Assembly: GCA_013151235.1 (NCBI GenBank)
Contig: JAADIO010000032.1
Coordinates: forward strand, 2,166 to 66,165
Length of the DNA stretch: 64,000 nucleotides
Direction: 5' to 3'
DNA from: Deltaproteobacteria bacterium
Lineage (GTDB): Bacteria; CG2-30-53-67
Shown: in pieces, positions 20,357-59,025 of the stretch
Position numbering within the stretch: the first letter of the stretch is position 1
How the letters are laid out: each line of letters begins with the position of its first letter
Notes under the pieces: generated by a model
What the model was told of the DNA's origin: nothing
Databases searched by the model: none
What the model saw: the letters and a program-made list of their open reading frames with translations, nothing else
Made by a program: the position numbers and the translations under genes

Positions 20357-21397
20357 TTATGCGATAATGTTCTTCCGTACCATCGGCCCCATAATCTTGC
20401 TCAGTCCGACCGGAAGTCTTTTCCAGACTGCGACCATCCGTGCCATGGCGGGACTGATCCGGTTTCCGGCTTCCGTCATGCCCTGGTTTTTTGCCCAGCA
20501 GTCCCAATAGAGTTGTTTCGGTTCCGCCCCCCACTGTGCCTTGAACCGGTATGTCCCCCCGTTCGGGGTGGATCTGCCGAAGTCGAATTTTCGGAATCCA
20601 TGTTCACAGGCATACTCGAGGGTCTTCCAGTACAGGAGCATGTTCGGGGCGAAACGGTTGTAGCTTCTGAGGGATGAGGCCCACGGGATTTCAAGGCGAC
20701 CGCGAAATCCGATGAGAAAACCCGAGGCGACCGGGACCTCCCGTGCGTATACAACACAGATCACGGCCCGGTTCGGGAAGAGGTCCAGGATATTACGGAA
20801 CAGCTTCTTGCCGTGTACCGGAGAGCCGAGATCCCGCATGTTTACGGCAAAGACATGGTAGAAATCATCCAGCAGTTCCTTGCTTCCGAAGTGTGCTTCG
20901 AACCCCTCCTTCATTGGTTTTTTGATCTGGCTTCTGAGCTTGGATCTGAAGGAAGTCCAGAGTTCATCGGGGGATTCGGGAAGATCGAGGATCATGGAGA
21001 CCTTGCACTGATTCCGGGTGAGGCCGAGTTCATAAGATTCCGCATGGCGTAGCTCCAGCGCCATCCGATGCTTCCCGGCAAGTTCGATCGCCGCATCGAG
21101 CAGTTTTGTCCGGACATCGTTATTCTCTGCAACGATGCCTCCGTAGTTCACGAAGGGCATGGAAACCAGGAAACGACCGAAGATCAGGCTCTTGACGTAC
21201 ACCAAGGGAAGAACCCCGACGATCTGATCTTCTTTTTCGGCACATAGGTAACAGGTTTGATGAGGAAAGGTCCTTTCCATCAGTTTCTTCCAGGAGAAAA
21301 GATGATAGAGCGATGCCGAAGGAGTCTGAAGAACGAAATCGTCCCAGGCTGTTTTTTGCTCCGGGACTAGGTAGGATATTTGAATGCTTTGTTTCAC
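20357..21397 (-). CDS. FemAB-family protein, PEP-CTERM/exosortase-system associated type
   Basis: 346 aa with a GNAT-like duplicated fold typical of FemAB. Sits next to EpsI and the exosortase. Confidence 0.65.
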   Translation of the reverse strand: MKQSIQISYLVPEQKTAWDDFVLQTPSASLYHLFSWKKLMERTFPHQTCYLCAEKEDQIVGVLPLVYVKSLIFGRFLVSMPFVNYGGIVAENNDVRTKLLDAAIELAGKHRMALELRHAESYELGLTRNQCKVSMILDLPESPDELWTSFRSKLRSQIKKPMKEGFEAHFGSKELLDDFYHVFAVNMRDLGSPVHGKKLFRNILDLFPNRAVICVVYAREVPVASGFLIGFRGRLEIPWASSLRSYNRFAPNMLLYWKTLEYACEHGFRKFDFGRSTPNGGTYRFKAQWGAEPKQLYWDCWAKNQGMTEAGNRISPAMARMVAVWKRLPVGLSKIMGPMVRKNIIA

Positions 21398-21401
21398 TGT
21401 C

Positions 21402-22046
21402 TCAGGAGGAGGTCTTTGTGGACCATTCTAATAGATAAGGATAGAATTTCAGAAGGAAATTTTGCAGGGTCCTCCATTGTTGTTCCGGTCTTTTCTCTAT
21501 CGGCATGGAAATCCGTACAAGCGCACCGTTGGTTCGGTTGTTCTGCAACGCGCGGCGGATCAGGTCAAACCGCTGGAGATACTCGTTTGCAATCACCCGG
21601 TTGTCCGCCTGGTACCAGTAGGCGACCAGCCGTTTGTCGGTGCCGTTTTCGATTATCATCCGGTTGATGTGAATCTTCCGGTCTCCAACCGGAACGGCAA
21701 CGACCTCCCTGCGAACCGGGGTCCAACCGCTGCCGGGATAACAGTGTAGGGGGGAGTGGATCTGTGTGCCGTTCTGCTGGGTTCGGTAGTAGCCGATGTA
21801 GAGCCAGATCGTTTGACCGTCGAGGGTATGGTAGGCCCGGTTCAGAATTGCATCGGCGCCGAGTTTTTTTAGGACGGCCGGTTTTAGGGGGATCTCTTCG
21901 CTCTGCCATTTACCGATCCGGTCCGGGAAGGTTGAAAAATTCCGGACGAGCGGAACCGGGATGGGGTGAGAAAGGGACCGACTGTAGAAAAAGACCCCGA
22001 TCAGCAGGATGAAAATCACCGAGAAATAGAGGTTGGATTTTTTCAT
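21402..22046 (-). CDS. EpsI-family exosortase-associated protein
   Basis: 214 aa with an N-terminal signal-anchor ('LYFSVIFILLIGVFFY') and a periplasmic domain. Lies immediately downstream of the exosortase with a 4-nt stop/start overlap, as in XrtA-EpsI pairs. Confidence 0.65.
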   Translation of the reverse strand: MKKSNLYFSVIFILLIGVFFYSRSLSHPIPVPLVRNFSTFPDRIGKWQSEEIPLKPAVLKKLGADAILNRAYHTLDGQTIWLYIGYYRTQQNGTQIHSPLHCYPGSGWTPVRREVVAVPVGDRKIHINRMIIENGTDKRLVAYWYQADNRVIANEYLQRFDLIRRALQNNRTNGALVRISMPIEKRPEQQWRTLQNFLLKFYPYLLEWSTKTSS

Positions 22047-22963
22047 GATGGTTTCACCTGCTCCGGGTGTGCCGGCCGCCGATGAAACGCCTGCAGGAGT
22101 TCATTCACCCCGAATATGAGAAGCGTAGCGGTCGTATAGACCACGATCCCGGAGGTTTCGTGGAGGAATCCCTGAGCCGTGTCGGGTCCTTTGTAAACGG
22201 CGAGAAGGGCCGTGACGACAAGGCGGAGAATGTTGCTGATCACGGCTATGGGGAAGATAGCGACAACCAGGAGAGCCCGGGGAAGGAAGCGTTGCTGGGC
22301 GATGTAGGTGAAGGCGATCCCGAAGGTGAGAAGTGAGGTCAGGGAGCGCAGTCCGCTGCAGGCATCGGCGACCTCCAGGGTGGTGTTCGGAAGATAAATG
22401 ATGTTTCCTTCATGGTGGACGGTAATGTGAAGAAGGTCAATAGTGAACACCGCCCATTTCGTAGCGAAGAGTTTCATGGGGGATGCGATGGCGTAATAGA
22501 GAATGTACGGCAAGGGGATCATCAGCAGGAGATAGAGGATCGGGAATACAATCGTCTTGCTCCCTTTCTTCCCCCACATGGTCAGGAGGATTCCAAGCAG
22601 AACAATGATGAAAGAAATCCGTGTGGTAAAAAGTTCATTCCCTGCGATGCCGATCAGGTAGGTTGTAAATCCGAACAGAACGACGAACAGCCCCGGGCCG
22701 TAAGGTTCCGGCTGAATTCGTGAGATTTTTTTTCTTTTACGCCAGACGAGAAATGCCGAGATGAGAGGAACAAAGATTCCGTAACCGTAGTTCGGGTCCT
22801 GATTCCAGTCCCGCCAGAGTTCCGGAAATACGGGCGCATATAGAACAAGCAAACCGAAGCCCAGAAGGCTGAGTTGCAACGGAAAGATTTTCCGGGAGGG
22901 CGATATCTTGTCTGTCTGTACGTGCTCTGTGGCCTTCATACAGCTCCGCCCTCTCGGTTCCAT
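22043..22963 (-). CDS. exosortase (XrtA-like), PEP-CTERM protein-sorting transpeptidase
   Basis: Polytopic membrane protein. N-terminal 'W..DPNYGYGIFVPLISAFLVW' matches the exosortase DPxYSHG box. 'DACSGLRSL' carries the catalytic Cys and 'ILRLVVTA' the Arg. The start may be the internal 'MKAT'. Confidence 0.85.
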   Translation of the reverse strand: MEPRGRSCMKATEHVQTDKISPSRKIFPLQLSLLGFGLLVLYAPVFPELWRDWNQDPNYGYGIFVPLISAFLVWRKRKKISRIQPEPYGPGLFVVLFGFTTYLIGIAGNELFTTRISFIIVLLGILLTMWGKKGSKTIVFPILYLLLMIPLPYILYYAIASPMKLFATKWAVFTIDLLHITVHHEGNIIYLPNTTLEVADACSGLRSLTSLLTFGIAFTYIAQQRFLPRALLVVAIFPIAVISNILRLVVTALLAVYKGPDTAQGFLHETSGIVVYTTATLLIFGVNELLQAFHRRPAHPEQVKPS

Positions 22964-23115
22964 CCGGAAGAGCTTGAGGTTCTTCCTCCATATGGAACTT
23001 CACCTTCCCTCATGGAAGGGCCGGCAGGACCGGCCGGTATTTGTTGGTCTGAACAGGGCTCACCTCATTGAAGTCTTTACTGCGGCTTCATGGTGAGACC
23101 ATCCCGGGATGCCTT

Positions 23116-24129
23116 TCAGGGTTCTACCAGAACACTTTGATACCAGCGAATTGTTTCGGTCAGCCCCTTTTCCAGATCAAATTGAGGGTGATAAGCGAGA
23201 TACTTCTCGGCGTAGGAGATGTCGGCCAGGGAGTGCCGGATATCTCCTTGTCGTTTCTCCCTGTAGCTGATCTCGGAACGGGAGCCTGTGATCTCGATGA
23301 TCTTCTCCGCCAGTTCCAGGATACTGATCCGCTCGCCGTACGCGATGTTGAAGGACCGGCCGGCTGCTTGATCCTGCACAAATCCGGCGAGGTTGGCCGC
23401 AACCACGTCGTCGATGTAGGTGAAGTCCCTGGTCTGTCCACCGTCCCCTTCAATGGTAATCGGCTCTCCCTTGAGCGCAGCGGTGACAAACTTGGGAATG
23501 ACGGCGGCATAATCCGATTTCGGGTCTTGTTTTCGTCCGTAGACATTGAAATAGCGGAGTCCCACGGTGTCGAGGCCGTAGATGTCGTGGAAGACCTTGA
23601 GATAGAGTTCCTTGGTGACCTTGGAGACGGCGTAAGGGGACTGAGGGTTGTAGGGCATCGTTTCGCGCTTGGGCAGTTCCGGGGTGTCGCCGTAGACGGA
23701 GGAGGAGATGGCCGTGACGACTTTTTTTACCCCGGAGTCGAGAGCGGCCTTCAACATGTTCAGCGTTCCCGTGACATTGATCTCGTTTGTAGCGAGGGGA
23801 TCCTCCACGCTCCGCGCGACGCTGGGGCGCGCCGCCTGATGTGAAACCGCCTCAATGCTGAAGGTTTGCATCACGTCGGTTAGATGGCTCCGGTCGAGAA
23901 TGCTCCCTTCAATGAGGGTGAAATCGGGATGATCGATGATTCCCTCCAGGTTTTCCCTGCGTCCCGTGCTGAAATCGTCGAAGACGACCACCGTATGTCC
24001 CGCCTGGATGGATTGTTCGGCAAGGTTGCTTCCGATAAATCCTGCGCCGCCGGTAATGAGAATTTTCACGTCTTGCTCCTCTGAATATGAATGGGGGATA
24101 ACCCTGTCAATTTTACTATTATACTTCAT
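23116..24129 (-). CDS. NAD-dependent nucleotide-sugar epimerase/dehydratase (UDP-hexose 4-epimerase-like)
   Basis: 'GGAGFIGSNL' Rossmann motif, 'YAVSK' catalytic YxxxK, 337 aa. Confidence 0.85.
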   Translation of the reverse strand: MKYNSKIDRVIPHSYSEEQDVKILITGGAGFIGSNLAEQSIQAGHTVVVFDDFSTGRRENLEGIIDHPDFTLIEGSILDRSHLTDVMQTFSIEAVSHQAARPSVARSVEDPLATNEINVTGTLNMLKAALDSGVKKVVTAISSSVYGDTPELPKRETMPYNPQSPYAVSKVTKELYLKVFHDIYGLDTVGLRYFNVYGRKQDPKSDYAAVIPKFVTAALKGEPITIEGDGGQTRDFTYIDDVVAANLAGFVQDQAAGRSFNIAYGERISILELAEKIIEITGSRSEISYREKRQGDIRHSLADISYAEKYLAYHPQFDLEKGLTETIRWYQSVLVEP

Positions 24130-24391
24130 TCGTGTTGTCGGGGAAAACCTTTTTTCAGGTTTTCCCCGAATTAATATTCCGCCCGGGTAGGGGTTGTGCT
24201 CAAGTTTCCGGGTTGCTGAGCCGATAAGAGAGATACTCAGTCGAAAAATGATGGAAGTCTATAGGAATCTTCACTGGAAATCTACGAAGTCAAGGGATCC
24301 TGCCCTATGGCTTCCGAACTCTTTCGGTTGTGCGGCAGGTCTAATAATCCCGGCTCATGATGGAGCCCGGGAAAATCAACGGAGGTGTACA

Positions 24392-25006
24392 ATGAAAAGA
24401 TTGGGAAGAACATCAGGTTTTACCCTGATCGAGATTATCGTGGTCATTGCCGTCATCGCGATCCTGGCGGCAATCATGACCCCCTCGATCATCAAAAATA
24501 TCGATGATTCCAGAATCGCACGGGCCAAGAACGATGTCCAGGTCCTGGGAGCGTCCGTTGCCGATTTCTACAAGGATACGGGAAAATGGCCGACCGATAA
24601 TGACCCGAGCGCCGGGAACAGTAACTATCTTTATGTGTTGGAGACTGTCGGCGGGACCACCCCCAGTCACAGTGGAACGGATACCAACGGCTGGACCACA
24701 TGGGGGGCCGCACGACGTGACACCTTTGAGAACCAGTTGGTTCTGAACGATCCGAAGGGAGGCGGCAATGCCTATCCGACGACCGGCGAGTTCCGATGGA
24801 AGGGACCCTATATTAACGAGATCAAGAGCGATCCGTGGGGGAACAAATACTACTGTAACGTAATCGGGCTCTGGTACGGCAGGGGCTACGAAGCCGTCTT
24901 TGTCCTTTCCGCCGGTCCCGACGGGGTCATCAATACCGATGTAAAACAGCTTATTTCTTCCAGTCCGACGCTGGGGGGGGACGATATCGGTTTCCGAATA
25001 AAATGA
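24392..25006 (+). CDS. type IV pilin / T2SS pseudopilin-like protein with prepilin N-terminus
   Basis: 'MKRLGRTSG|FTLIEIIVVIAVIAILAAI' is a class III signal (G-1, F+1, E+5). RBS 'GGAGGTG' lies 5 nt upstream of the ATG at 24392. The longest ORF, from 24194, is unlikely to be the true start. Confidence 0.75.
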   Translation: MKRLGRTSGFTLIEIIVVIAVIAILAAIMTPSIIKNIDDSRIARAKNDVQVLGASVADFYKDTGKWPTDNDPSAGNSNYLYVLETVGGTTPSHSGTDTNGWTTWGAARRDTFENQLVLNDPKGGGNAYPTTGEFRWKGPYINEIKSDPWGNKYYCNVIGLWYGRGYEAVFVLSAGPDGVINTDVKQLISSSPTLGGDDIGFRIK

Positions 25007-25097
25007 TGTGATCGTTTCATGAGGATAAGCTGTTCCTGCTGACCATTGCACCGGGTCCGATTTTTACCATCGGTCACGGGATGAAAGGTTCCTTCTG

Positions 25098-26768
25098 ATG
25101 CCGGTAAGTACACCTCCGAAAACCCGTCCTTTAGGGGAACGTCTGATTGATGCGGGGCTTTTAACCTCCGAGCAGCTTCGCATCGCGCTGAAGGAACAGA
25201 AACGAACGAAAGAGATGCTGGGCCGGATCCTGGTCCGGCTGGGATTTACCACACAGGAGCAGATCGAGGCGGCCCTGGCGCAGGAGTCGGGGACCGTTCA
25301 GAAAAATCTCGAATTTGTCGAGATTGATCTTGATGCCGTCAAACTGATCAATGAGGAGACGGCCCGGAAATACAAACTGATTCCGGTCTCCCGGGAGGGA
25401 GAGGTGCTGACGGTTGCCATGGTCGACACCTTTGACGTGGTGGCCATTGACGAAGTCCAGAACGAGTCAGGTCTTGATGTGAACGTGATTGCCGCCTCGG
25501 AGAAGGATGTCCTGGAGGCGATCAACAAGTATTGCGGATTTTCCGGGTCCATCGATGAAGTGGTCGATCAGGCCCTTGCCGAGGGGCTGGGGCGTGATCG
25601 GGCCGACCAGGAGGCCCAGGAGGCTCCGATCATCCGCCTGGTCAATCAGTTGATCCTTCGCGGGATTAATGAAGCGGCAACGGATATTCACTTCGAACCG
25701 GACGAAAAGGTCCTGCGGATTCGTTACCGTCTGGACGGGGCCTTGCAGCAGGGGTTTCTCCTGCCCAAGCAGTTGCAGCCTTCGGTCATTGCCCGGATCA
25801 AAATCCTGGCCGACCTGAACATTGCTGAATCGCGCATCCCCCAGGACGGCAAGATCCGTTTTCAAATCGGGAAGAAAGATATCGATCTCCGTGTTTCCAC
25901 CCTTCCGACCATTTACGGGGAGAACGTGGTGATGCGGATTCTCGACAAGTCAAAGGTCCTTCTGGGGCTGGAGGACCTCGGTTTTTCCCCGCAGAATCTC
26001 GAGATTTTCACCGAGATGATTCAGCGCCCTCACGGGATCATTCTCGTCACCGGGCCCACCGGATCGGGCAAGACGACGACGCTCTACACGGCTCTTTCCC
26101 ATATCAACTCTCTGGACAAGAAGATCTGCACCCTGGAGGATCCTGTGGAATATCAGCTCTCGGTGATTCGTCAGACCCAGATTAATGAAGAGATCGGTAT
26201 GACCTTTGCCGCCGGTCTGCGCTCCTTGTTACGACAGGACCCCGATGTGATTCTTGTGGGAGAGATGCGGGATACGGAAACCGCGGAGATGGCCATCCGG
26301 GCGGCCCTGACCGGACACCTGGTCTTTTCCACCCTTCATACCAACGATGCCGCCGGCGCTCTGCCGCGGTTGATCGATATGGGGCTGGACCCTTATCTCC
26401 TGGCCTCTTCCATCATCATGGTCCTGGCCCAGCGGCTGGTCCGAAAGATCTGCCCCGACTGCAAGGAGGCCTATACGGTCCCTGCCGAAGAACTGCGGGC
26501 TCTTGGACTGGCCGAGATGGAAGGGTTTTCCTTCTACAGGGGGGCGGGCTGCGATAAGTGTAATCAGTCCGGCTATCGGGGGCGGGCGGCCATTTATGAA
26601 CTTCTTCCGGTGGATCACACCGTTCATGATCTGATTCTGCAAGGGGCTTCCTCCGTCGAGATTCAGAAATCTGCGATGTCACAGGGGATGACGACCATGC
26701 GGAACGACGGATTCAAAAAAGTAGTGGTCGGTTTGACGACCCTCGACGAAGTGATGCGCCTGACGTAA
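25098..26768 (+). CDS. gspE: type II secretion / type IV pilus assembly ATPase (GspE/PilB family) with N-terminal GSPII_E_N repeats
   Basis: Walker A 'GPTGSGKTTT', Asp and His boxes, and a tetracysteine 'CPDC...CDKC' motif. 556 aa. Confidence 0.9.
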   Translation: MPVSTPPKTRPLGERLIDAGLLTSEQLRIALKEQKRTKEMLGRILVRLGFTTQEQIEAALAQESGTVQKNLEFVEIDLDAVKLINEETARKYKLIPVSREGEVLTVAMVDTFDVVAIDEVQNESGLDVNVIAASEKDVLEAINKYCGFSGSIDEVVDQALAEGLGRDRADQEAQEAPIIRLVNQLILRGINEAATDIHFEPDEKVLRIRYRLDGALQQGFLLPKQLQPSVIARIKILADLNIAESRIPQDGKIRFQIGKKDIDLRVSTLPTIYGENVVMRILDKSKVLLGLEDLGFSPQNLEIFTEMIQRPHGIILVTGPTGSGKTTTLYTALSHINSLDKKICTLEDPVEYQLSVIRQTQINEEIGMTFAAGLRSLLRQDPDVILVGEMRDTETAEMAIRAALTGHLVFSTLHTNDAAGALPRLIDMGLDPYLLASSIIMVLAQRLVRKICPDCKEAYTVPAEELRALGLAEMEGFSFYRGAGCDKCNQSGYRGRAAIYELLPVDHTVHDLILQGASSVEIQKSAMSQGMTTMRNDGFKKVVVGLTTLDEVMRLT

Positions 26769-26784
26769 TTCCCGGGGACAGGCA

Positions 26785-27984
26785 ATGCCCGAATATACCT
26801 ATAAAGCGAGAAATACGGAAGGCAAACTGATCAACGGTGTGATGGCTGCGGTCAACCCGGAGGATCTCTATGCAAAGCTGTCCGGGATCGGCTGTTATCC
26901 CACCGGTTTCGAGATCCGGAAGAATGTCTCCCTCGGGGTGAGGAAAAGGGTCTCACGGCGGGATCTGATTACTTTCACGGTTCATCTCGGAACCATCCTT
27001 GCCTCGGGGATCCCGATCCTCACCGGCCTGAAGGACCTGCTGGAGCAGACCGAGGTCGGGTTTTTCCGTCAGGTCATTGAAGACATCCATCGGAATATCG
27101 AGGCCGGTCTTTCCCTCTCGGCCGCGATGGCGGAGTACCCGCAGGTCTTTTCCGAACTGTATGTGGCCATGGTTTCCGCCGGGGAGAGTACCGGGAAAAT
27201 GGAGGAAACCTTCCAGAGTCTGACCTCCTATCTGGAGTGGCAGGAGGACCTGATGGGGCAGATCAAGCAGGCGACCCTTTATCCCATTGTTGTTTTCTGG
27301 GCCATCGTTGGGCTGGTGGCCCTGATCTTTACCGTGGTCCTGCCGAAATTTCTCGTTATCTTTGAAAAGAGCCATGTGGCGCTCCCCCTTCCGACCCGGA
27401 TCATTATTTCGATCAGTCATTTCATGCTCCACTCCTGGCCGATGCTGCTGTGCGGGATCTTTCTCTTTTTCCTGGCGCTGCGCTTCATCAAAGGGATTCC
27501 CGCCACCCGGATCGCCTATGACCGGCTCAAATTGATGATCCCAGTTTTCGGGGCCTTAAGTCACAAGATTATCCTGGCCCGGTTTGCGCATACCTTCAGT
27601 TCCCTGTACCGTTCCGGCGTCAATATTATTCATGTTCTGGAATTGATGGAGAAAACAACGGGCAACCGGGTTTTTGAAAGAGCGGTCGTGGAGATCCGCC
27701 AGAGGGTTCAGGAAGGACGGGGTGTTGCCGAGACGATGCGGGAGACGGGGCTCTTTCCTCCCCTGTTCGTTCGGATGGTTTCCATCGGGGAAGAGACAGG
27801 AAGCCTTGATTTTACCCTGGAGAAACTGAGCGGTTTTTACGACCGTGAGGTTCCGATGACCGTTAAAAAGGTCTTCGGTATCATGGAACCGTTGATCATT
27901 GTGATTTTGGGGGGAATCGTGGGGACGGTGGCCATGTCGGTTTTTCTGCCCCTCTACAAGATGATGAGTGTGGCCGGAGGTTAA
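26785..27984 (+). CDS. gspF: GspF/PilC-family inner-membrane platform protein
   Basis: 399 aa with two repeats of the T2SSF domain and three TM segments. Confidence 0.85.
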   Translation: MPEYTYKARNTEGKLINGVMAAVNPEDLYAKLSGIGCYPTGFEIRKNVSLGVRKRVSRRDLITFTVHLGTILASGIPILTGLKDLLEQTEVGFFRQVIEDIHRNIEAGLSLSAAMAEYPQVFSELYVAMVSAGESTGKMEETFQSLTSYLEWQEDLMGQIKQATLYPIVVFWAIVGLVALIFTVVLPKFLVIFEKSHVALPLPTRIIISISHFMLHSWPMLLCGIFLFFLALRFIKGIPATRIAYDRLKLMIPVFGALSHKIILARFAHTFSSLYRSGVNIIHVLELMEKTTGNRVFERAVVEIRQRVQEGRGVAETMRETGLFPPLFVRMVSIGEETGSLDFTLEKLSGFYDREVPMTVKKVFGIMEPLIIVILGGIVGTVAMSVFLPLYKMMSVAGG

Positions 27985-27987
27985 ACG

Positions 27988-29577
27988 GTGGTTTTTTTTT
28001 CATCCAGATTGGTTGTCGGCATGGAGATCAGCGGGAACGTCATTCGTCTGGCTCTGCTCCGGCGCTTGCGAAAAAAAGATTCTCTGGAGGGGCTGATTCG
28101 ACTGGAAGCACCGTCCGACAATATCGAGGATGTCCGCCGGACGCTCACCGATGGTGTCCGCCGGAACGGTCTGACGGGAACGCCCGCAGCCATGATTCTC
28201 CAGGACCCCCGCATCCTGCACCGGGCTTTCGCCTTGCCGAAGATGTCGCAGAAAGAGATTGATGCTGTCGTTCCCTTTGAAGCACGAAAGGCCTTCGGGG
28301 TCAGGCGGGACTTCCGGATCGTTTACCATGTACATACCCGTTATCGGGAAGAAGGGGTCCCGAAGATTGAGGTCCTTGCCGCTGCGGTCCCGGGGGAGAT
28401 CGTGCAGAATGCCCTCGATCTGATTCGGGCCGCCGATCTGGTCCCGTACTATCTCATGTCCCTTCCATTTGTACAGTCGCAGCTACCTTCAGCCGCTCTG
28501 ATCTCGGAAACGGAGGAGACGGTGGCTCATCTCCATATCACCCGTATGGGGGTCGATCTGACGGTAACCCGGGGGGGGCATTTTCTCTTTTCCCGCTTGA
28601 TCCGAAAGGAGATCGACTTTTCCCGATTTGATATGACGCCGATGTCGGCGGAACCGGCCTCTTTTGAGAACGACGGCATGGAAATTCTCTCTATTGCCGA
28701 GGAGACGACCGGTGAAAAGGACGATCCTTTCGAACGTCTCTGTACGGAAATCAATCGATCCTTCCTCTATGTCAAACAACAGAACAAGGAGTCCGTAAAG
28801 CGGATTCGGCTGACCGGGGAAGGAAAAAGATTCCCGAACCTGGTGGAGCAGTTGCAACATCACTTAAAACTTCCGCTGACCGTCCTTGAAAATTTGCCGG
28901 GGCTGGATCGGCCGGTCATCTGTACGCCGGCAGCGGGAGAGGAGGGGGAATACGATCTTTGCGTGGCGGTGGCCAAAACCCCCTCGATCTTTTCCACGGC
29001 CAATCTCCTGCCGGAAGAGGAGCAGCTTGAATGGAAAAAGCGATCCGCCCAACGGATTGCAAAGGTTGCCTACATGGTGACGTCGGTCCTGGTCCTGTTT
29101 CTTTATGTGCAGCTTTCCTATCATGTGTATCATGATCAAGTGGAGGCACGGAGATTGCGGCAGGGATATGCCCGGGTGGATCACCGGTTTGAAGGGGTGC
29201 GCCGCACACTTCAGGTTCAATCCGACCGCCTGTTGAGGCGGGCGCTCTGCCGGGGACTCACTTCGGCATCCATTCCTCCGGAGGATGTTCTGGCGGCACT
29301 TGCCCTCTATGCGCCGGATACCGTTGTCCTGAAGCAGTTGGTGGTGCAAGGGGGAAGCCGACCCTTTTTCATGAGGCTGTCGGGAAGGATCGTCCTGCCC
29401 GATTATTCCGGTGGGGAGAAAGAACTGGATCACTTTTTGAATCAATGTAAAAAGACGGGTTTATTCAAGACCGTCCGGGGACGAATCGGTGCCGCTGCGG
29501 ATCAGGGGGAATCGGGACGGGTACAAGTTGCCTCCGTCGGCCGGAGGCGGATCCCGATCGAAATCGAAGGAGAATGA
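27988..29577 (+). CDS. GspL/PilM-like assembly protein (cytoplasmic actin-like domain, TM helix, periplasmic domain)
   Basis: The N-terminus is PilM/GspL-like ('VVGMEISGNVIRLALL'). A single TM lies near residue 350 ('VAYMVTSVLVLFLYV'). 529 aa. Confidence 0.55.
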   Translation: MVFFSSRLVVGMEISGNVIRLALLRRLRKKDSLEGLIRLEAPSDNIEDVRRTLTDGVRRNGLTGTPAAMILQDPRILHRAFALPKMSQKEIDAVVPFEARKAFGVRRDFRIVYHVHTRYREEGVPKIEVLAAAVPGEIVQNALDLIRAADLVPYYLMSLPFVQSQLPSAALISETEETVAHLHITRMGVDLTVTRGGHFLFSRLIRKEIDFSRFDMTPMSAEPASFENDGMEILSIAEETTGEKDDPFERLCTEINRSFLYVKQQNKESVKRIRLTGEGKRFPNLVEQLQHHLKLPLTVLENLPGLDRPVICTPAAGEEGEYDLCVAVAKTPSIFSTANLLPEEEQLEWKKRSAQRIAKVAYMVTSVLVLFLYVQLSYHVYHDQVEARRLRQGYARVDHRFEGVRRTLQVQSDRLLRRALCRGLTSASIPPEDVLAALALYAPDTVVLKQLVVQGGSRPFFMRLSGRIVLPDYSGGEKELDHFLNQCKKTGLFKTVRGRIGAAADQGESGRVQVASVGRRRIPIEIEGE

Positions 29578-29581
29578 CCCC

Positions 29582-30214
29582 ATGGAACGACTCCCCGGGG
29601 TGAAACGATTTTTGAAGACCCACCAGAACTGGGTGCAGATGACCCTTCCAGGGCTGGTGATTGCGGGGCTGGTCCTGGTTCTGATCGTTCCGAAGGTCAG
29701 GCAGTGGTATGCCCTGCAGCAGGAGATTGGAAAGGTGGGCAGGCAAATGGAACGAGTCTCGATGGATTTGGCTTCTCTCCCGCCGGAGCGGCTTCAGCGC
29801 CTTGCCCGGGCCGATGCGGACGATCGGGAACGGCTGCCCGGCCGGGGTCGGTTCTACACCTACCTGGGGCACCTCCGGGAACTGGGCCGCTCCCTGGGGA
29901 TTGATGAGATCACTTATTTTCGGGGTGCAGTGGAACGGGTCGACATGGATGAGATTCTGGCTCGTTCGACCTTCAATGAGTTGCCCATCTCTCTGGATCC
30001 GGACTCGAATGTCTTGTATGGCATTCCCGTGAAGATCCAGTTTCAGGCCCCCTACCGGACCCTCTATCGGTTTCTGAGGTCGCTCCGGGGAGGAAAACGG
30101 TTGACCGATATCCGGGAAGTGCGGGTCAAAAAAAAATCCGGATCTCTTGCGGTGGAGATGAAGATGGAACTCTATTATCTTGTGAAAAATTCGGGAAGAA
30201 AAGATGCTGCGTAA
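29582..30214 (+). CDS. GspM/PilO-like bitopic membrane protein
   Basis: RBS 'GAAGGAG' precedes the ATG at 29582. N-terminal TM 'MTLPGLVIAGLVLVLIV' is followed by a coiled-coil region. The longest ORF starts at 29489 inside the upstream gene. Confidence 0.5.
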   Translation: MERLPGVKRFLKTHQNWVQMTLPGLVIAGLVLVLIVPKVRQWYALQQEIGKVGRQMERVSMDLASLPPERLQRLARADADDRERLPGRGRFYTYLGHLRELGRSLGIDEITYFRGAVERVDMDEILARSTFNELPISLDPDSNVLYGIPVKIQFQAPYRTLYRFLRSLRGGKRLTDIREVRVKKKSGSLAVEMKMELYYLVKNSGRKDAA

Positions 30215-30677
30215 CAAGGTCTTCTTCCTGCTCCTGATCGTGTCGGTGTTCTTCGCCGTTTACCGGAATTATACCTTTTTCCGCAAACGGTTCCATGCCA
30301 TGACACCGTCGGCGATGGCCTCTCTGCCGGTTTCGCCGGATCGGGTGCCGGGGGAGAAGAAAGAAGACAAAGTCGATGGACTCTCCACCGCCGACCGGCT
30401 CCGGTTTGCGGCGGGCGCAGGCCGGGACCCTTTTGTCCTTCCTGGAGGAGAGACTTTCGCTGTGCCGCAAGTGTCGTCGAAAACGAACCGGTTGCCCCGC
30501 CTGAACGCTGTTCTGTGGAGCCGGGGACGTCGGGTTGCCTTGTTGGATGGGGAGATCCATCAGGAAGGGGAGAATATCTCCGGACACAGGATCCTCCGGA
30601 TTGAGCCGGATCGGGTGATCCTGGCCGGTGGGGGAGGCGAGGTGATGATCGAGCTGAAAAAGGGGGAAACCCCCTGA
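30204..30677 (+). CDS. GspC/PilP-like small periplasmic protein with N-terminal anchor
   Basis: 157 aa with an N-terminal TM ('VFFLLLIVSVFFAVY'). Sits just before the secretin. Its start overlaps the previous stop. Confidence 0.4.
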   Translation: MLRNKVFFLLLIVSVFFAVYRNYTFFRKRFHAMTPSAMASLPVSPDRVPGEKKEDKVDGLSTADRLRFAAGAGRDPFVLPGGETFAVPQVSSKTNRLPRLNAVLWSRGRRVALLDGEIHQEGENISGHRILRIEPDRVILAGGGGEVMIELKKGETP

Positions 30678-30696
30678 ACACAAAGGAGGAAATCTT

Positions 30697-32283
30697 TTGA
30701 AAAATATCCGTATCATCCTGCCGGGGCTTTTGCTCCTCATCCTCTGGGGATGTGCCGCCGGGAGCAAGACGATCGCAAAGCCGGCGCTTCCGGAACAATA
30801 TACGCCGAAACCTTCCGTGCAGTCGGCCCCTCCGGGGGCCGAGTATCTCCTCCCGCAGATGGCCGGAAAGGAGTCGATCAAGGGAATCGACGGAGAGCGG
30901 TTCTCCATCGCCGTGCAGGATACAAAGCTCAAGGATGTTCTCATGGTTCTGGCCCGGGGCAGCCGTTATAATATGATCGTCGATCCCGCCATCAATGAAT
31001 CCGTTACCATTGACCTGAAAAAGATGACCATGGGAGAGGCCCTGCAGGCGATTCTTTCTCCTCTGCACCTGCAGTACACGATTCGTGGGAACACGATTGA
31101 AGTTCTCCGCCCCCGAATGTCGACCCGCGTCTTCACCCTGAATTATATTACCGCCAGCCGGACCGGTGAAACCGGGTTGATTGTCAGCAGCGGTGGGAGA
31201 GGCGGGGAAAAGAGCTCCGCCGGGGACTACGGTACCGTAAAGTCGACGAACAAGGTGGACCTCTGGGCGGAGATCCGCAAAGGCCTGAACAGCATCCTTT
31301 TCGGTGGCGGCGGAGAGAATGGGAGTGGTCATCAGGAAGAGCGGCTGGTGATCAACGAGCATTCCGGGACCATTCTGGTCACGGCCCTGCCGGCGAAACT
31401 GATGGAGATCGCCGATTTTCTGGAGCGCGTCGAAGGATCGATCCAGCGGCAGGTAATGATCCAGGCCAAGATTATCGAAGTGACCCTTTCCGACGGATTC
31501 AAGGCGGGAATCGACTGGGCGGGGATTCCCAATTTGCGGGGCTCCTTCGTGGGGAACCTTACCTCGGGATTGGCTGCTGCACAACCCCTTCCCGCTTCCG
31601 TGGTACAGCATTTGAGTCCGGGTACCGGCAACTTCCAGATCGGCGCCACCAAGGGGGATATCTCCATTCTCCTCGACATGATCGCCACCCAGGGGAAGGT
31701 TCATGTCCTCTCCAGTCCGAGGATCTCGACCCTGAACAACCAGAAGGCGATTATCAAGGCGGGGCGGGAGGACACCTTCTTCACCGTGAACAAGGAAACA
31801 AATACCGAGGGAGGCGTCCTGCAGGAAAATTTCAATGTCGACCGGGAGGACTACACCATCGGCGTGGTCCTTGATGTGACGCCCCAGATCTCATCCGATG
31901 GGACGATCATCATGAATATTCATCCCAGCATCACCGATTTTGTTGAGGAAAAGACCTTCCCTCCGGGGGCTGTAGGGGTTGACATCTTGGCCAATGCGCC
32001 CGTTCTTGATGTCCGGGAAGTCGACACCATGGTCCGAGTCAAGGACGGCGAGACGATTGTGATTGCCGGTCTGATGCAGGAAAAGACCGAGGAATCGACG
32101 ACGTCCGTTCCGGTCCTGGGGGATATCCCGGTGTTCGGAAAACTGTTCCGGCGGGTGGAGAAGAAAAAGGAAAACACGGAACTGGTGATCCTGTTGCAGC
32201 CGGTTGTTGCCGTCGGCAGAAGCCCGGAAGCTGTCTCCTTTTCCTCTGGTGGGACACCTCCTTTGACTCTGAGGCAACCATGA
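30697..32283 (+). CDS. secretin (GspD/PilQ family) outer-membrane channel, lipoprotein-type signal
   Basis: Lipobox 'LLLILWGCAAGS', N-domains, and the C-terminal secretin signature '..VPVLGDIPVFGKLFRR..'. Confidence 0.85.
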   Translation: MKNIRIILPGLLLLILWGCAAGSKTIAKPALPEQYTPKPSVQSAPPGAEYLLPQMAGKESIKGIDGERFSIAVQDTKLKDVLMVLARGSRYNMIVDPAINESVTIDLKKMTMGEALQAILSPLHLQYTIRGNTIEVLRPRMSTRVFTLNYITASRTGETGLIVSSGGRGGEKSSAGDYGTVKSTNKVDLWAEIRKGLNSILFGGGGENGSGHQEERLVINEHSGTILVTALPAKLMEIADFLERVEGSIQRQVMIQAKIIEVTLSDGFKAGIDWAGIPNLRGSFVGNLTSGLAAAQPLPASVVQHLSPGTGNFQIGATKGDISILLDMIATQGKVHVLSSPRISTLNNQKAIIKAGREDTFFTVNKETNTEGGVLQENFNVDREDYTIGVVLDVTPQISSDGTIIMNIHPSITDFVEEKTFPPGAVGVDILANAPVLDVREVDTMVRVKDGETIVIAGLMQEKTEESTTSVPVLGDIPVFGKLFRRVEKKKENTELVILLQPVVAVGRSPEAVSFSSGGTPPLTLRQP

Positions 32284-33248
32284 ATACCGGAGAATCAACG
32301 AGGGAACGGCGGGAAGGAGAAGGAGCCGGGTTGCACCTCTTCATGAACCGGAAAAGAATCCGGGGCTATGGCAGTCTCGCGCTGATGTTTCTCTTTGTCA
32401 TTGTCAGCCTGAAACTTCTCTTTCCGCCTGTGCCGGTAGGGGCTCTCGTGACGACAAACGAGCCCCTCATCCCGACGAAACCGCCGGTACAAAAAGGGGG
32501 AAAAAGGATAGACATCCCTGTGGCGGAACACCCGAAAATCGTCCGGAGAAAGCTGCCCGGGGAGTTCGCTCCTCCGGAAAAGGCGGAAGTCGGGCAGATC
32601 ACCATCTTGTCCCCGAAGCAGGCTGAAGTGAATGAGAAGACCTCCCGTAAGCTGATGGAACTTTCCACCTTTAATGAAGGAGTGGACGCGTTGGCGAGCG
32701 GAAACTACCTGGAGGCGGTGCTGAACTTCAACCGGACCCTCTCCGTTAACCCTCTCAATGTCCGGGCCTGTAACAATCTCGGGCTGGCCTTGATGGAAAC
32801 GGGAAAGGGGAAAGCCGCTGAAGAGGCCTTCCGCAAGGGGCTCGTCATCGACCCCGGGGATGTACGGTGCCTGAACAATCTTGCCCTCCTCTATATCCAA
32901 AGAGGAGAACCTGCCCGATCCCTCCCCTTGCTGGAGCGAATTGTTAAAGACCATCCGGGAGATGCCGTTGCCTGGACCAACCTGGGGGTGGCTGAAGGAA
33001 GAACAGGGAAAGCGGCTGCCGCCGAGACCGCCTACCGCCGGGCACTGAAACTGACCCCCGGGGATTACCGGGTCCATTTCAATCTTGCCCGAACCCTTGA
33101 AAAGGAGGGGCGGCTTATCGAAGCGATCTACTATTATCGGGCCTGTTTGCGGTTCCTTCCTTCGGCGGAAACCGGTCGGGCCCGGAAGGTGATCGCTCAT
33201 CTGAAACAACTCCGGTCATCCCTCACCATTCCCGCCGTCCGGAAGTAA
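32280..33248 (+). CDS. TPR-repeat protein (PilF/PrsT-like)
   Basis: At least six TPR units ('AWTNLGVAEGRTGKAAAAETAYRRALKLTP' and others). N-terminal TM/signal. Start overlaps the secretin stop. Confidence 0.8.
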   Translation: MNTGESTRERREGEGAGLHLFMNRKRIRGYGSLALMFLFVIVSLKLLFPPVPVGALVTTNEPLIPTKPPVQKGGKRIDIPVAEHPKIVRRKLPGEFAPPEKAEVGQITILSPKQAEVNEKTSRKLMELSTFNEGVDALASGNYLEAVLNFNRTLSVNPLNVRACNNLGLALMETGKGKAAEEAFRKGLVIDPGDVRCLNNLALLYIQRGEPARSLPLLERIVKDHPGDAVAWTNLGVAEGRTGKAAAAETAYRRALKLTPGDYRVHFNLARTLEKEGRLIEAIYYYRACLRFLPSAETGRARKVIAHLKQLRSSLTIPAVRK

Positions 33249-33467
33249 TTCTGCACATAAATGGTTGCAATCATTCACTGTAGGATTTCTTTTCAATCAT
33301 AACCTGCTGATTATAAAGAATTTTACGGTGAGACCCCGATTTTTCTCCCCAATCTGTCGGTTTTTCGTACAGGTTCCCCTTTGGTAGGGATGGGATCTGC
33401 GGCATTTGCCCTTTATCCATGCCGTAAATGTTCTGCAAAATGAATAGGTTACTGTAATATATTAATA

Positions 33468-33484
33468 TTGGCATCGATTATGCA
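33468..33484 (+). promoter_or_regulatory. candidate sigma-54 (-24/-12) promoter upstream of the PEP-CTERM gene
   Basis: 'TTGGCATCGATTATGCA' matches the GG-N10-GC spacing of the consensus TGGCAC-N5-TTGCW. It lies about 70 nt upstream of the ATG, followed by the RBS 'AAGGAGG'. Confidence 0.4.
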
Positions 33485-33556
33485 TTCATGCTATGCAGTT
33501 ATTGATTACTGCATTTTATATGGCTTGTTTGAAAAAATATTAAGGAGGTACGGATC

Positions 33557-34150
33557 ATGATCAAGAAAATGTGGAAAATTACGATGGTTGCCTTCCTCGG
33601 GGTTTTATTCTTGGCGCCGGATCTTTTCGCTTTCCCGGTGCTGGGATATGTCGATCCTGGTTTCGGTTCTGGCTATTCCTTGTCGACGACAAAGGTCGGG
33701 ACGGCCACTTACACATTCAAAAATCTTGTCTCCGGATCAAACCTGAATCTTCAGTCGATTTCTCTGGATTTTGAGAAAGATGTTTTTGACATGGACAACA
33801 CCTCTCCTGTGTCGGGAAGCCTTCCTCCGGGCTGGTACTTTGCTCCTCCTATAGACCTTGGAACATATTCTTTTCAGATTACATTTACGCCCGGATTTGG
33901 AATACCGGAAGGCGGAGAGCTTTCATTCCAGATGGATTATACACTATGGGATGATGCCCTTTCCCTGGATTGGGACGAAGGGGGATACTGGGAACAAGGC
34001 TTCGGAGTGAAATATACAGGTGTGCATTTGCTTGTACCCGGCGGTTCAACTGCTCCCGTCCCGGAACCTGCGACCATGCTCTTGTTCGGGATCAGTCTCA
34101 TCACCGTTGCCGGGTATGGAAGGCATCGTATGAACCGTAACAACAGTTAG
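33557..34150 (+). CDS. PEP-CTERM sorting-domain protein (exosortase substrate)
   Basis: Signal peptide 'MVAFLGVLFLAPDLFA'. The C-terminus 'VPEPATMLLFGISLITVAGYGRHR' is the canonical PEP motif, TM helix and basic tail. Confidence 0.9.
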   Translation: MIKKMWKITMVAFLGVLFLAPDLFAFPVLGYVDPGFGSGYSLSTTKVGTATYTFKNLVSGSNLNLQSISLDFEKDVFDMDNTSPVSGSLPPGWYFAPPIDLGTYSFQITFTPGFGIPEGGELSFQMDYTLWDDALSLDWDEGGYWEQGFGVKYTGVHLLVPGGSTAPVPEPATMLLFGISLITVAGYGRHRMNRNNS

Positions 34151-34185
34151 GGTGCGATTTAAAAGAGAATAAGGGGCTTTTCGGG

Positions 34186-34224
34186 AAGGCGTTTACAGTG
34201 ATTGTAAGCGCCTTTTTCTTGTTT
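34186..34224 (+). terminator. Rho-independent terminator after the PEP-CTERM gene
   Basis: Stem 'GGCGTTTAC' / 'GTAAGCGCC' with a 7-nt loop, followed by 'TTTTTCTTGTTT'. Confidence 0.65.
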
Positions 34225-34860: not shown

Positions 34861-35187
34861 CACGCACCCGGGGGAAATCACGCACCTCCTGAGATTCCTC
34901 CTGCCGGTTTTTCCACATTCGACCTTCTTGCAACATCTGTGTTTGCGGCATGGTATGAAAAAAACTTCTCAAATTGGGAATTTTTTTTCCTATATTGGGA
35001 AAAAATTTTCCAATTCACAGATCGAAAATATCCAGAATAGAGCATAATCCATCCATATACCAGTAAAAACAGTCCTAATTATCTGTTTTTTGAGGGTATA
35101 TCCAAGTAATTGTGATTATGGCATCGTATTTGCTGTTATCGAGTATGGGAAGGGATGTTTCAGTGAGAAGAAAGGGGTGGTGTCGTC

Positions 35188-35634
35188 TTGAAGGAGCAAA
35201 CCGAGAACCGACAAACGAATCGAGATCGACGCCGGAAACCGACGCCGATTTTCAGTCGGCATACCTTTTTCGGTCGCAGGAAATTGAACCGTCGAAGCTC
35301 CGACAGACATTACAATTACTATGTTGATTTATACAGTGCCCGCCTTTTTCTCATCCTCCTTCTGATTGTCATCATGTCTCTCCTCGATGCCGGTTATACC
35401 TACCGGTATATCTCGATGGGCGGCAAGGAGCTGAACCCGGTCATGGACTATTTTCTGAGCCGGGGAGTTTTCTCCTTTTTTTCTTACAAGTTCGTGATGA
35501 CGGCTATCGGGGTTTTCGTCCTCTGTCTCCATAAGAACTTCCTCTTTGCCCGGAACATGATTTCCGTGATCCTGGTCAGTTATATCCTCCTCATGTTCTA
35601 CCATGTCTCCATTCTCTACGCTACGCTTCAATAA
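35188..35634 (+). CDS. small membrane protein, DUF5658-like (LxxxD..G..ELNPxM motif)
   Basis: 'SLLDAGYTYRYISMGGKELNPVMDYF' is followed by two further TM helices. The Arg-rich N-terminal extension is probably not all coding, so the true start is uncertain. Confidence 0.45.
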   Translation: MKEQTENRQTNRDRRRKPTPIFSRHTFFGRRKLNRRSSDRHYNYYVDLYSARLFLILLLIVIMSLLDAGYTYRYISMGGKELNPVMDYFLSRGVFSFFSYKFVMTAIGVFVLCLHKNFLFARNMISVILVSYILLMFYHVSILYATLQ

Positions 35635-35879
35635 AGGCAGAGGCACAGAGTTCAAAGGCAAACGTGGTCGCCACCCATCAAGATTGATACTGTGCACTAA
35701 TTATAATCCCCCTTTTCAATATGATTAAGAATTTCCAGTTCCCCGATCCCCAATCTCTGTCAAGGTCTGCTATCCAAAGATCTTCTTGACGGGCTCGGGA
35801 AGTTCAACTATAGTAAAGTTCCCGGAAAGGATTTTTGAGCCCTTTTCCTGCCGTTTTTTCCCAATTGCAGGTCGTTTCC

Positions 35880-36542
35880 ATGGAGTCCTTTACAAATATC
35901 GTCAAAAAGATCGATTCGGTCCTTTCGGTGAATCAGAATATTGAGATCACTTTTGACCATCCCGATTTCATGGTGGAATACAAAAGCCGGGTGGAGAGCA
36001 TTCTGACCGACGGCATTGCCGTGGCTCCACCCACACGCAGGTGTATTGACGTCGGTACCTCCTGCTGGGTCTATTTTTTGACCAAGGGACAACGCTACGG
36101 CTTTTCAAGCCGGGTGAGAGGCTATGGAAAGGAGCGGGTCGTCCTGTTGCTCCTAGCCCGCCCCCAGGAGATCCTGCGCCTTCAGCGGAGAAAATATTTC
36201 CGTGTTCCCGTCGAGATCCCTGTCGATTTCCAGGTACGGGAAGAAACAGAGACGTCTCTCCTGTCCGGTGTGATCCGCAACATCAGTTCCGGTGGTGTTC
36301 TCCTGATAGTCTCCCGGGATGTAGTTCCAGTGGGCAAAGAACTGCGGCTGCGTTTTACCCTGAGTTCCGAGATTTCCCTTACGGAGATTCCGGGAAAAAT
36401 CGTCCGTGTGGAAGAGGCGAAGAACGGAAAGAAATATGAATACGGTGTGGAGTTCATTGATGTCCATAATCGTCTCCGGGATATCATCATGCGTTTTGTT
36501 TTTAACCGCGAAATTGAGTTGAACCGTTTGAGGCGGAGATAA
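35880..36542 (+). CDS. PilZ-domain c-di-GMP receptor, YcgR-like (PilZN + PilZ)
   Basis: 'RRKYFRV' is the RxxxR motif and 'NISSGGVLL' the D/NxSxxG motif. About 220 aa, as for YcgR. Start chosen at 'MESFTN'. Confidence 0.7.
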   Translation: MESFTNIVKKIDSVLSVNQNIEITFDHPDFMVEYKSRVESILTDGIAVAPPTRRCIDVGTSCWVYFLTKGQRYGFSSRVRGYGKERVVLLLLARPQEILRLQRRKYFRVPVEIPVDFQVREETETSLLSGVIRNISSGGVLLIVSRDVVPVGKELRLRFTLSSEISLTEIPGKIVRVEEAKNGKKYEYGVEFIDVHNRLRDIIMRFVFNREIELNRLRRR

Positions 36543-47098: not shown

Positions 47099-47251
47099 GG
47101 CGAAGAGGGGGTAGTAAGTCCGTGTTGTTCAGGTCCCATTGACCTTGTGAGAGAGGGGGTTGTGATGGGTACATTCTGGGAAAATCTCAAAAATATGTTT
47201 GTGCGGACTGTTCCTCCGGGAGCAGCCGGGCAATCGCAGAAAGGAGCTGCC

Positions 47252-47698: not shown

Positions 47699-47775
47699 GC
47701 GCTTCAGCCGCGGGAGGGGGGAATCCCCCCTCTTTTGCCCCCCTCCTGCGGATTTTACCCATTTTTAATTTAAGG

Positions 47776-48747: not shown

Positions 48748-48780
48748 TCGATAACCCTAATATCAGAAGGAGAAAACGTT

Positions 48781-49803: not shown

Positions 49804-49817
49804 TCAGGAGGCATGGA

Positions 49818-51175: not shown

Positions 51176-51177
51176 AG

Positions 51178-58990: not shown

Positions 58991-58996
58991 ATCCGA

Positions 58997-59025
58997 ACTT
59001 TACTTGAAAAACCCTGCAGAGTCAA
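58997..59025 (-). promoter_or_regulatory. sigma-70-type promoter for riboswitch/btuFCD transcript
   Basis: Minus strand TTGACT-17 nt-TAAAGT, immediately upstream of the riboswitch. Confidence 0.4.

Follow-up and report, generated by a model that had tools for sequence, protein, structure and literature searches.

A rearranged MSH-like pilus operon between an exosortase operon and a sigma-54-preceded PEP-CTERM gene in an uncultured deltaproteobacterial lineage

Here we describe an operon of eight genes in a 64,000-nucleotide stretch of contig JAADIO010000032.1 (assembly GCA_013151235.1), which belongs to the metagenome-assembled genome (MAG) of an uncultured 'Deltaproteobacteria' bacterium (the whole stretch is called the window below, and its proteins are deposited as NOY53162 to NOY53197). 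The operon encodes a machine resembling the mannose-sensitive hemagglutinin (MSHA) pilus and lies between an operon for an exosortase and exopolysaccharide (EPS) synthesis and a gene for a PEP-CTERM protein, the presumed substrate of the exosortase. The module is best called a rearranged MSH-like variant. The interpretation that we favor, with moderate confidence, is that it forms a self-contained filament machine of the MSHA kind with a role in surface adhesion or aggregation, co-inherited with its neighbors as a 'matrix island', rather than an exporter dedicated to exosortase cargo.

Results

Eight tightly packed genes encode a machine with MSHA-type parts

The eight genes on the forward strand at 24392-33248 are separated by gaps of at most 91 bp or overlap one another (open reading frame listing and family scans) and therefore form one operon, without space for additional genes (Table 1). 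All of the genes that an earlier reading of this DNA, made from the letters alone (hereafter the sequence-only reading), had listed here are present. Sequence and fold comparisons establish what the parts are and how they are ordered, along with the operon structure and the cyclic di-GMP (c-di-GMP) motif described below, and what we say of their function is deduced from homologues.

The predicted ATPase carries at its N terminus an MshEN c-di-GMP-binding motif in two tandem copies (amino acids 11-62), which is kept in its relatives and scores 63.6 bits on the MshE-type motif model NF053729 (cut-off 38), along with a Walker A sequence (GPTGSGKTT) and a tetracysteine motif. Its scores on the PilB model TIGR02538 (623.4 bits, cut-off 675.65) and the GspE model TIGR02533 (610.1 bits, cut-off 630.25) are nearly equal, and its best matches in the Protein Data Bank are to PilB over the full length (505-522 bits), whereas GspE matches over the catalytic core only (428-440 bits). 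The platform protein scores 320.6 bits on the GspF model TIGR02120, below the cut-off of 424. For the secretin, which has a lipobox (LILWG-C, conserved in alignment A1), an N0/STN domain, a Gly-rich Secretin_N_2 domain and the secretin domain, the best model is that of MshL (TIGR02519, 246.2 bits), where it falls 4 bits under the cut-off of 250.2, while it is well under the cut-offs for GspD (185.7 versus 351.35 bits) and PilQ (167.5 versus 284.35 bits); its homologues are mostly named MshL by the source databases.

The three proteins encoded between platform protein and secretin had been described as GspL-, GspM- and GspC-like, a description that we replace with PilM-PilN, PilO and PilP type, corresponding to MshI, MshJ and MshK. 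The 529-amino-acid protein consists of a cytoplasmic actin-like domain, one transmembrane (TM) helix (amino acids 357-375) and a periplasmic domain (the database gene call begins 11 codons downstream). Its AlphaFold2 model (pLDDT 78) shows a four-subdomain actin-like domain, a long TM/coiled helix and a small alpha/beta periplasmic domain, and in Foldseek searches this model matched PilM (5eou, E = 6e-16) and the cytoplasmic domains of GspL/EpsL (E = 2.6e-5 and 2e-4), so that the predicted fold is that of PilM rather than GspL. The 210-amino-acid protein, whose homologues in loci L003 and L005 are also 210 amino acids long, has a TM helix (amino acids 18-36) and a weak match to the GspM model NF040576 (E = 0.0011), and the 157-amino-acid protein matches PF16537 (T2SSB, E = 1.7e-4) and NF041515 (GspC_delta, E = 0.0038) weakly; the module contains no GspC with a PDZ domain. 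When profiles built from the window clade together with its sister clade were aligned by hhalign to those of canonical gammaproteobacterial MSHA loci (for example, Enterovibrio L069), the 529-amino-acid protein matched MshI with a probability of 97.8%, the 210-amino-acid protein MshJ with 83.5% and the 157-amino-acid protein MshK with 98.1%, compared to less than 27% for the off-diagonal controls. The tetratricopeptide repeat (TPR) protein matched MshN with 97.6%, a match less specific than the other three.

MshN is a homologue of TadD, a secretin assembly factor (PMC6668835), and the TPR protein probably acts in secretin assembly. It had been taken for a lipoprotein, but no cysteine follows its N-terminal hydrophobic segment, and the lipoprotein of the operon is instead the secretin. 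As a separate candidate identity for the TPR protein, PrsT was considered and rejected (66.9 bits on TIGR02917, cut-off 312.2). A counterpart of MshM was found neither in the operon, which has no unassigned coding space, nor as a TIGR03015 or AAA_22-type protein among the window open reading frames that were scanned.

The single pilin has a GspG-like head

The prepilin begins with the leader MKRLGRTSG, predicted to be cut before FTLIE, and is the sole element of the module that resembles a type II secretion system (T2SS): its GspG-type motifs DPWGN, SAGPDG and GDDIGF are conserved in the pilin alignment (A3), and the protein scores 66.5 bits on the GspG model TIGR01710, below the cut-off of 88.85. 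A single-sequence AlphaFold model of the pilin was unusable (pLDDT 37.8). Motif scans of the 64-kb window revealed no other prepilin, as the sequence-only reading had noted for the pseudopilin, and, again in agreement with it, no A24-peptidase motif of a prepilin peptidase. Likewise, the window encodes one secretion ATPase only, with neither a second nor a PilT retraction ATPase, and no minor pilins or GspH-K minor pseudopilins. The word 'complete', as applied to the machine before, therefore overstates the case: the window encodes no peptidase, minor pilins, MshM or retraction ATPase.

A GspG-type head on the pilin, and the fact that it is the only one, are features that favor a different explanation of the locus, namely a dedicated exporter. 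According to this explanation, the PEP-CTERM protein would leave the cytoplasm by Sec export and be cleaved or transferred by the exosortase at the inner membrane, after which a T2SS-like piston, with a short GspG-like pseudopilus, would push it (perhaps linked to polysaccharide) through the MshL-type secretin. The other components speak against such an assignment, as the fold of the 529-amino-acid protein is that of PilM and not GspL, the GspD, GspE and GspC scores are under cut-off, and GspH-K genes are absent.

The module is best classed as a rearranged MSH-like variant

Compared to the MSHA systems of Vibrio and Shewanella, the module shares collinear homologues of MshI/J/K/L/N, the lipoprotein nature of the secretin, and the MshEN c-di-GMP motif in the ATPase. 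Typical features of MSH systems are a single locus and the absence of a prepilin peptidase (PMC6668835), and the module likewise is a single contiguous locus without a prepilin peptidase in the window. It differs from MSHA in its gene order, which is rearranged with pilin-E-G first, in the absence of MshM and MshF, in having one GspG-headed pilin where MSHA has MshA, B, C, D, O, P and Q, in a secretin score just under the MshL cut-off, in its MshI, which is a single PilM-PilN fusion, and in its host, an uncultured 'Deltaproteobacteria' MAG and not a gammaproteobacterium. The TXSScan MSH model requires MshM, and the module therefore falls outside the strict MSH class.

With the T2SS (Gsp/Eps/Pul), the module has in common the GspG-type pseudopilin domain (PF08334; DPWGN and SxGxDG...GDD motifs), the ATPase, platform protein and secretin, and the lack of a retraction ATPase. 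However, it has no GspH-K and no PDZ-bearing GspC, has a PilM fold instead of GspL and an ATPase whose N terminus is MshEN and which is closest to PilB, and stays under the cut-offs of the GspD, GspE, GspF and GspG models. We conclude that the module is not a classical T2SS. Nor does it classify as a type IVa pilus, given its PilB and PilQ scores (623.4 versus 675.65 and 167.5 versus 284.35 bits) and the lack of PilT in the window. The sequence-only reading had said that its proposal would fail if the cluster were a generic pilus (PilMNOPQ) cluster with pilin genes elsewhere or were not conserved beside exosortases in related genomes; on the first point, the cluster is indeed of PilMNOPQ/MSHA type and not a T2SS, and on the second it is kept beside exosortases only in a small clade (see below), which overall amounts to half of what would have spoken against that proposal.

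The module occupies a variable slot beside a conserved exosortase block

The MshI-like protein has few relatives: a search of 5.8 billion proteins gave 6 matches, one of 1.84 billion gave 3 cluster representatives below 1e-30, and a metagenome scan with the MshI-like alignment returned only relatives of 22-23% identity (L088-L091) and no new members of the clade. The module adjoins an exosortase block in four loci from two lineages: the window, L005/L008 (the same contig), L099 and L001/L094. In each of the other three, it is divergent from epimerase-exosortase-EpsI exactly as in the window. The arrangement claimed by the sequence-only reading, a cluster between the exosortase gene and a PEP-CTERM gene, is real, but an epimerase gene intervenes and the cluster is divergently transcribed. 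Both in the window and in L005 the module separates the exosortase block from the PEP-CTERM gene, and L005 is the only other locus with an orthologue of that gene downstream. In L001 a histidine kinase and a response regulator follow the module, and no PEP-CTERM gene was found in the 10-kb flanks surveyed in L001/L094. Identity between the window and L001 is 42-78% for the proteins of the module and 51-75% for those of the exosortase block, which is consistent with co-inheritance.

Outside this clade the link dissolves. A scan of species-representative genomes with the secretin alignment yielded 80 loci, among which an exosortase was detected only in L008 (tblastn with window proteins and a 120-sequence exosortase hidden Markov model), and none of the 79 others has one within 10 kb. 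Seven loci of the sister clade (L006, L007, L009, L010, L018, L020 and L023; secretin identity 36-49%) keep the order pilin-E-F-I-J-K-L-N without an exosortase within 10 kb, and each encodes a second, larger GspG-like prepilin (250-414 amino acids past the cleavage site; Table 1), which the window-clade locus lacks. L006 and L007 also carry an HDOD protein. The HDOD proteins and the large adhesin-like pilin fit an adhesive pilus. We also note that the large prepilin of L006 has Asp-rich repeats of the calcium-binding-domain type.

The relatives of the window exosortase form a tight clade (58-80% identity), within which L092, L093 and L098 keep epimerase-exosortase-EpsI and have a sigma-54 response regulator where the module would be. 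In L092 and L093 this regulator is a bona fide PrsR (TIGR02915, 557 and 541 bits, cut-off 502.6) and is followed by an orthologue of the window PEP-CTERM gene (51-52% identity) that shares its sigma-54 element, whereas the L098 contig stops before any such gene could appear. In all, PEP-CTERM orthologues lie beside the exosortase blocks of L005, L092 and L093 (51-59% identity). The term 'inserted', used for the cluster by the sequence-only reading, is borne out by this comparison, as the exosortase block leads directly to PrsR and the PEP-CTERM orthologue in L092/L093 and has the module in between in the window and L005. Gene content across these loci indicates that the exosortase block and the PrsR-type PEP-CTERM gene form the conserved functional unit; the slot between them is held variably by the pilus module, which two lineages of the clade have and two others lack. 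The sigma-54 response regulator encoded in the window itself was considered as a candidate PrsR and rejected (TIGR02915, 418 bits).

These comparisons bear on the dedicated exporter. In its favor are the position of the module between exosortase block and PEP-CTERM gene in two loci and beside the block in four, together with the single pilin of the window clade, which lacks the adhesin-type pilin of the sister modules. Yet the same exosortase clade and cargo gene occur without a module nearby (L092/L093), the module adjoins an exosortase without a cargo gene within 10 kb (L001/L094), and its closest relatives, like the module family at large, are independent of exosortases. For these reasons we disfavor dedicated export. 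The sequence-only reading had suggested the secretin as the route for PEP-CTERM cargo or the associated EPS; adjacency is what supports this suggestion, and the comparative data weaken it.

A further explanation is that the two systems are unrelated neighbors, the module having landed in a recombination-prone slot, PrsR's elsewhere, and persisting by shared descent in a shallow clade. The adjacency is confined to a rare clade, the slot beside the epimerase varies within the exosortase clade, and the genes downstream of the module vary as well (where the window and L005 have PEP-CTERM, L001 has the histidine kinase and response regulator), all of which suit this explanation; neighbor-joining trees of the exosortase, epimerase and EpsI decide neither between one gain and several losses nor on the monophyly of the module-bearing lineages. 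We nevertheless regard it as unlikely, because the arrangement and the divergent epimerase orientation are kept in two lineages, because surface, matrix and c-di-GMP biology is common to both systems, and because MshM and MshN are homologous to proteins of XrtA systems (see Discussion).

The PEP-CTERM gene has its own sigma-54 element

The PEP-CTERM gene lies downstream of the pilus operon and is monocistronic. Its product has a signal peptide, a domain of approximately 140 amino acids, the sequence GGSTAPVPEP, a TM helix and a basic tail. As the sequence-only reading had proposed, the gene appears to be driven by sigma-54: a -24/-12 element precedes it (Table 1), and the site is found upstream of all four orthologous genes (window, L005, L092 and L093), together with further conserved upstream blocks. 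A pattern scan of the window identified three such elements, compared to 0.14 expected by chance. No sigma-54 site by the same strict pattern was found upstream of the pilin operon, including the 262-bp divergent region, and no riboswitch, for c-di-GMP or otherwise, was found in the pilin 5' region. Different promoters for cargo gene and machine, and a terminator closing the former, again argue against dedicated export.

Several observations concern the surroundings of these genes. The second perfect sigma-54 element (35119-35134) precedes a DUF5658 membrane-protein gene (35188-35634), and the third (45679-45694) is situated just past the gene for the sigma-54 response regulator, ahead of a corrinoid methyltransferase cluster (46067-53154). 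A cobalamin riboswitch (RF00174, 104.7 bits, 58815-59001, reverse strand) is located near the corrinoid methyltransferase/RACo cluster. In L092, which has no module, a sigma-54 element (9935-9950) also precedes the exosortase gene, and the strict pattern detected none upstream of the window exosortase. A YcgR-like PilZ-domain protein (PilZNR and PilZ; 35835-36542, forward strand), encoded 1.7 kb past the PEP-CTERM gene, adds a second predicted c-di-GMP receptor to the vicinity of the pilus operon and was not found at the matching position of L001. Finally, the divergent intergenic region contains a palindrome with a perfect 13-bp stem, TCGGGGAAAACC...GGTTTTCCCCGA (24138-24169), located 9 nt 5' of the epimerase start and partly kept in L099, which could be an operator or a 5' untranslated-region hairpin.

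The divergent neighbor is an exosortase/EPS operon

The genes at 20357-24129 on the reverse strand form the head of an EPS operon of approximately 24 kb that is divergent from the pilus operon across 262 bp and runs on to the window edge with genes for glycosyltransferases, a radical-SAM enzyme, an amidotransferase, a deacetylase and a Wzy-like ligase. Among its products are an 814-amino-acid double-GT2 protein of synthase type (PgaC-like, approximately eight predicted TM segments), a PgaB-like deacetylase, a radical-SAM/SPASM enzyme, a DUF362 protein and an 862-amino-acid protein with PcRGLX-like (lyase-type) N-terminal domains.

XrtA/PEP-CTERM systems comprise PrsK, PrsR and PrsT and sigma-54-dependent PEP-CTERM genes (Haft 2006; Zoogloea, Aquincola PepA). 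The window shares with them an exosortase, EpsI and a FemAB-family TIGR03019 protein, all above cut-off, as well as the amidotransferase, the glycosyltransferases and the conserved sigma-54 promoter on the PEP-CTERM gene. It differs in that its exosortase scores 191 bits on the XrtA model TIGR03109, below the cut-off of 208, and in the absence of PrsR, PrsK, PrsT and a TIGR03015 ATPase.

No Wza/outer-membrane polysaccharide export (OPX) protein, Wzc or other outer-membrane exporter was seen in the 24 kb of this operon that lie inside the window, which would leave room for the secretin as a dedicated exporter; however, the operon continues past the window edge, and an OPX gene may lie beyond view. 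Weighing this together with the evidence on promoters, parts and relatives given above, we consider the dedicated exporter quite unlikely.

Table 1. Genes and sequence elements of the pilus, PEP-CTERM and exosortase regions, and second large prepilins of sister loci
Feature	Coordinates	Strand	Evidence or remark
Prepilin, GspG-like globular domain	24392-25006	+	PF07963 27.3 bits and PF08334 (T2SSG) 37.1 bits, both above cut-off
Extension ATPase, PilB/MshE type	25098-26768	+	PF00437 460.8 bits; PF05157 58.2 bits (cut-off 23.1)
Inner-membrane platform protein, PilC/GspF/MshG family	26785-27984	+	PF00482 186.6 bits, two repeats
MshI-like PilM-PilN fusion, 529 amino acids	27988-29577	+	PF11104 (PilM_2) 33.3 bits
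MshJ/PilO/GspM-like bitopic protein, 210 amino acids	29582-30214	+	Start placed by homologues
MshK/PilP-like protein, 157 amino acids	30204-30677	+	N-terminal TM helix or signal sequence, C-terminal beta domain
Lipoprotein secretin, MshL type	30697-32283	+	PF00263 146.3 bits; STN
Membrane-anchored TPR protein, MshN/TadD-like	32280-33248	+	One predicted TM helix
Sigma-54 -24/-12 element, TGGCATCGATTATGCA (TGGCAT-N5-ATGCA)	33469-33484	+	73 nt before the PEP-CTERM ATG
PEP-CTERM protein, 197 amino acids	33557-34150	+	PF07589 24.9 bits (cut-off 20.7); TIGR02595 18.1 bits (cut-off 16)
Terminator-like hairpin	34183-34217	+	16-bp stem, then T run; closes the PEP-CTERM gene
Epimerase	23116-24129	-	Between exosortase and pilus operon
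Exosortase	22043-22963	-	PF09721 238.2 bits; TIGR02602 189 bits (cut-off 105.55)
EpsI	21402-22046	-	TIGR02914 149.3 bits (cut-off 42.8)
FemAB-family XrtA-associated protein	20357-21397	-	TIGR03019 339.7 bits (cut-off 260.35)
Unusual EPS-operon members	12541-14985, 4290-5393, 5327-7915, 16136-18296	-	
Second large prepilin, L006	26-2235		
Second large prepilin, L007	1340-2251		
Second large prepilin, L009	786-2138		
Second large prepilin, L010	1316-2215		
Second large prepilin, L018	5967-6767		
Second large prepilin, L020	6009-7133		
Second large prepilin, L023	5849-6790		

Discussion

We propose that the single GspG-headed prepilin would be processed by a prepilin peptidase encoded elsewhere and polymerized by the PilB/MshE-type ATPase on the PilC/GspF platform, with the MshEN motif presumably making assembly c-di-GMP-dependent. 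The alignment complex of MshI, MshJ and MshK would link this motor to the lipoprotein secretin of MshL type, whose assembly the MshN/TadD-like TPR protein may aid. In one small uncultured 'deltaproteobacterial' lineage, the operon fills the slot held by PrsR in related genomes and for this reason lies between the exosortase operon and the PrsR-type, sigma-54-driven PEP-CTERM gene. The filament would accompany the exopolysaccharide and PEP-CTERM matrix in a shared sessile lifestyle with high c-di-GMP.

Several points weigh against this proposal. The GspG-like pilin head is a hallmark of the T2SS, and the combination of one pilin, no large adhesin-type pilin and no retraction ATPase in the window-clade locus would fit a short pseudopilus equally well. 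Moreover, adjacency retained across two lineages whose exosortases are 62-66% identical hints at more than chance, and filament formation, adhesion and c-di-GMP binding are ascribed to this machine by homology. The homology of MshM and MshN to XrtA-system proteins, described next, may also reflect a deeper mechanistic link between the two systems.

Genuine MshM of Vibrionaceae (Enterovibrio L069, 11406-13445) has a single NCBIfam match, TIGR03015 (182.9 bits, E = 8e-54), the family named 'XrtA/PEP-CTERM system-associated ATPase', and the best NCBIfam match of MshN is the XrtA-system TPR protein PrsT. By these family matches, canonical XrtA systems carry homologues of the MSHA accessory proteins MshM and MshN, which adds a further point in favor of a dedicated exporter. 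It is conceivable that exosortase and MSHA-type machines are mechanistically related and that the machine described here is the outer-membrane route for the exosortase-processed PEP-CTERM protein, possibly with polysaccharide, the MshM-like (TIGR03015) and MshN-like (PrsT) proteins of XrtA systems being remnants or partners of such a machine, but we hold this to be a long shot.

The route by which PEP-CTERM proteins traverse the outer membrane once the exosortase has processed them is acknowledged to be an open question (PMC12188702, 2025), which leaves room for a dedicated exporter, and the T2SS is used by two further C-terminal sorting-tag systems, MYXO-CTERM and GlyGly-CTERM (PMC11980579). 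Since those systems do so, it is reasonable to treat a secretin machine found next to an exosortase as a lead. Our literature searches found no account of a canonical XrtA locus that includes pilin, ATPase, platform protein and secretin, nor an earlier description of a pilus or secretin operon adjoining an exosortase. In Nostoc punctiforme, where secretion of hormogonium polysaccharide depends on type IV pili, a type IV pilus system, the secreted polysaccharide and exosortase-processed PEP-CTERM proteins jointly serve adhesion and biofilm formation (PMC12188702). There, unlike in the window, the pilus genes lie outside the exosortase locus, and the cyanoexosortase CrtB belongs to another exosortase subfamily; the authors favor a Wza-type route, and the link between pilus and exosortase is phenotypic, not mechanistic (PMC12188702).

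For the MSHA-like filament that we propose, the lead is narrowed in three respects: the machine is of MSHA type with predicted c-di-GMP gating and not a T2SS, its pairing with the exosortase is lineage-restricted, and the PEP-CTERM gene and exosortase co-occur without it in sister genomes. Judged from the loci surveyed, the pilus-exosortase neighborhood is unusual and confined to one small uncultured lineage. The compact rearranged MSH-like module (pilin-E-G-I-J-K-L-N, with a GspG-like pilin) is by comparison widespread in uncultured Thermodesulfobacteriota, Acidobacteriota and others, and thus extends beyond the Gammaproteobacteria, Chrysiogenetes and Epsilonproteobacteria from which MSH has been reported (Denise et al., 2019). 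For the XrtA family, MshM and MshN emerge as the nearest characterized relatives of two unexplained system proteins.

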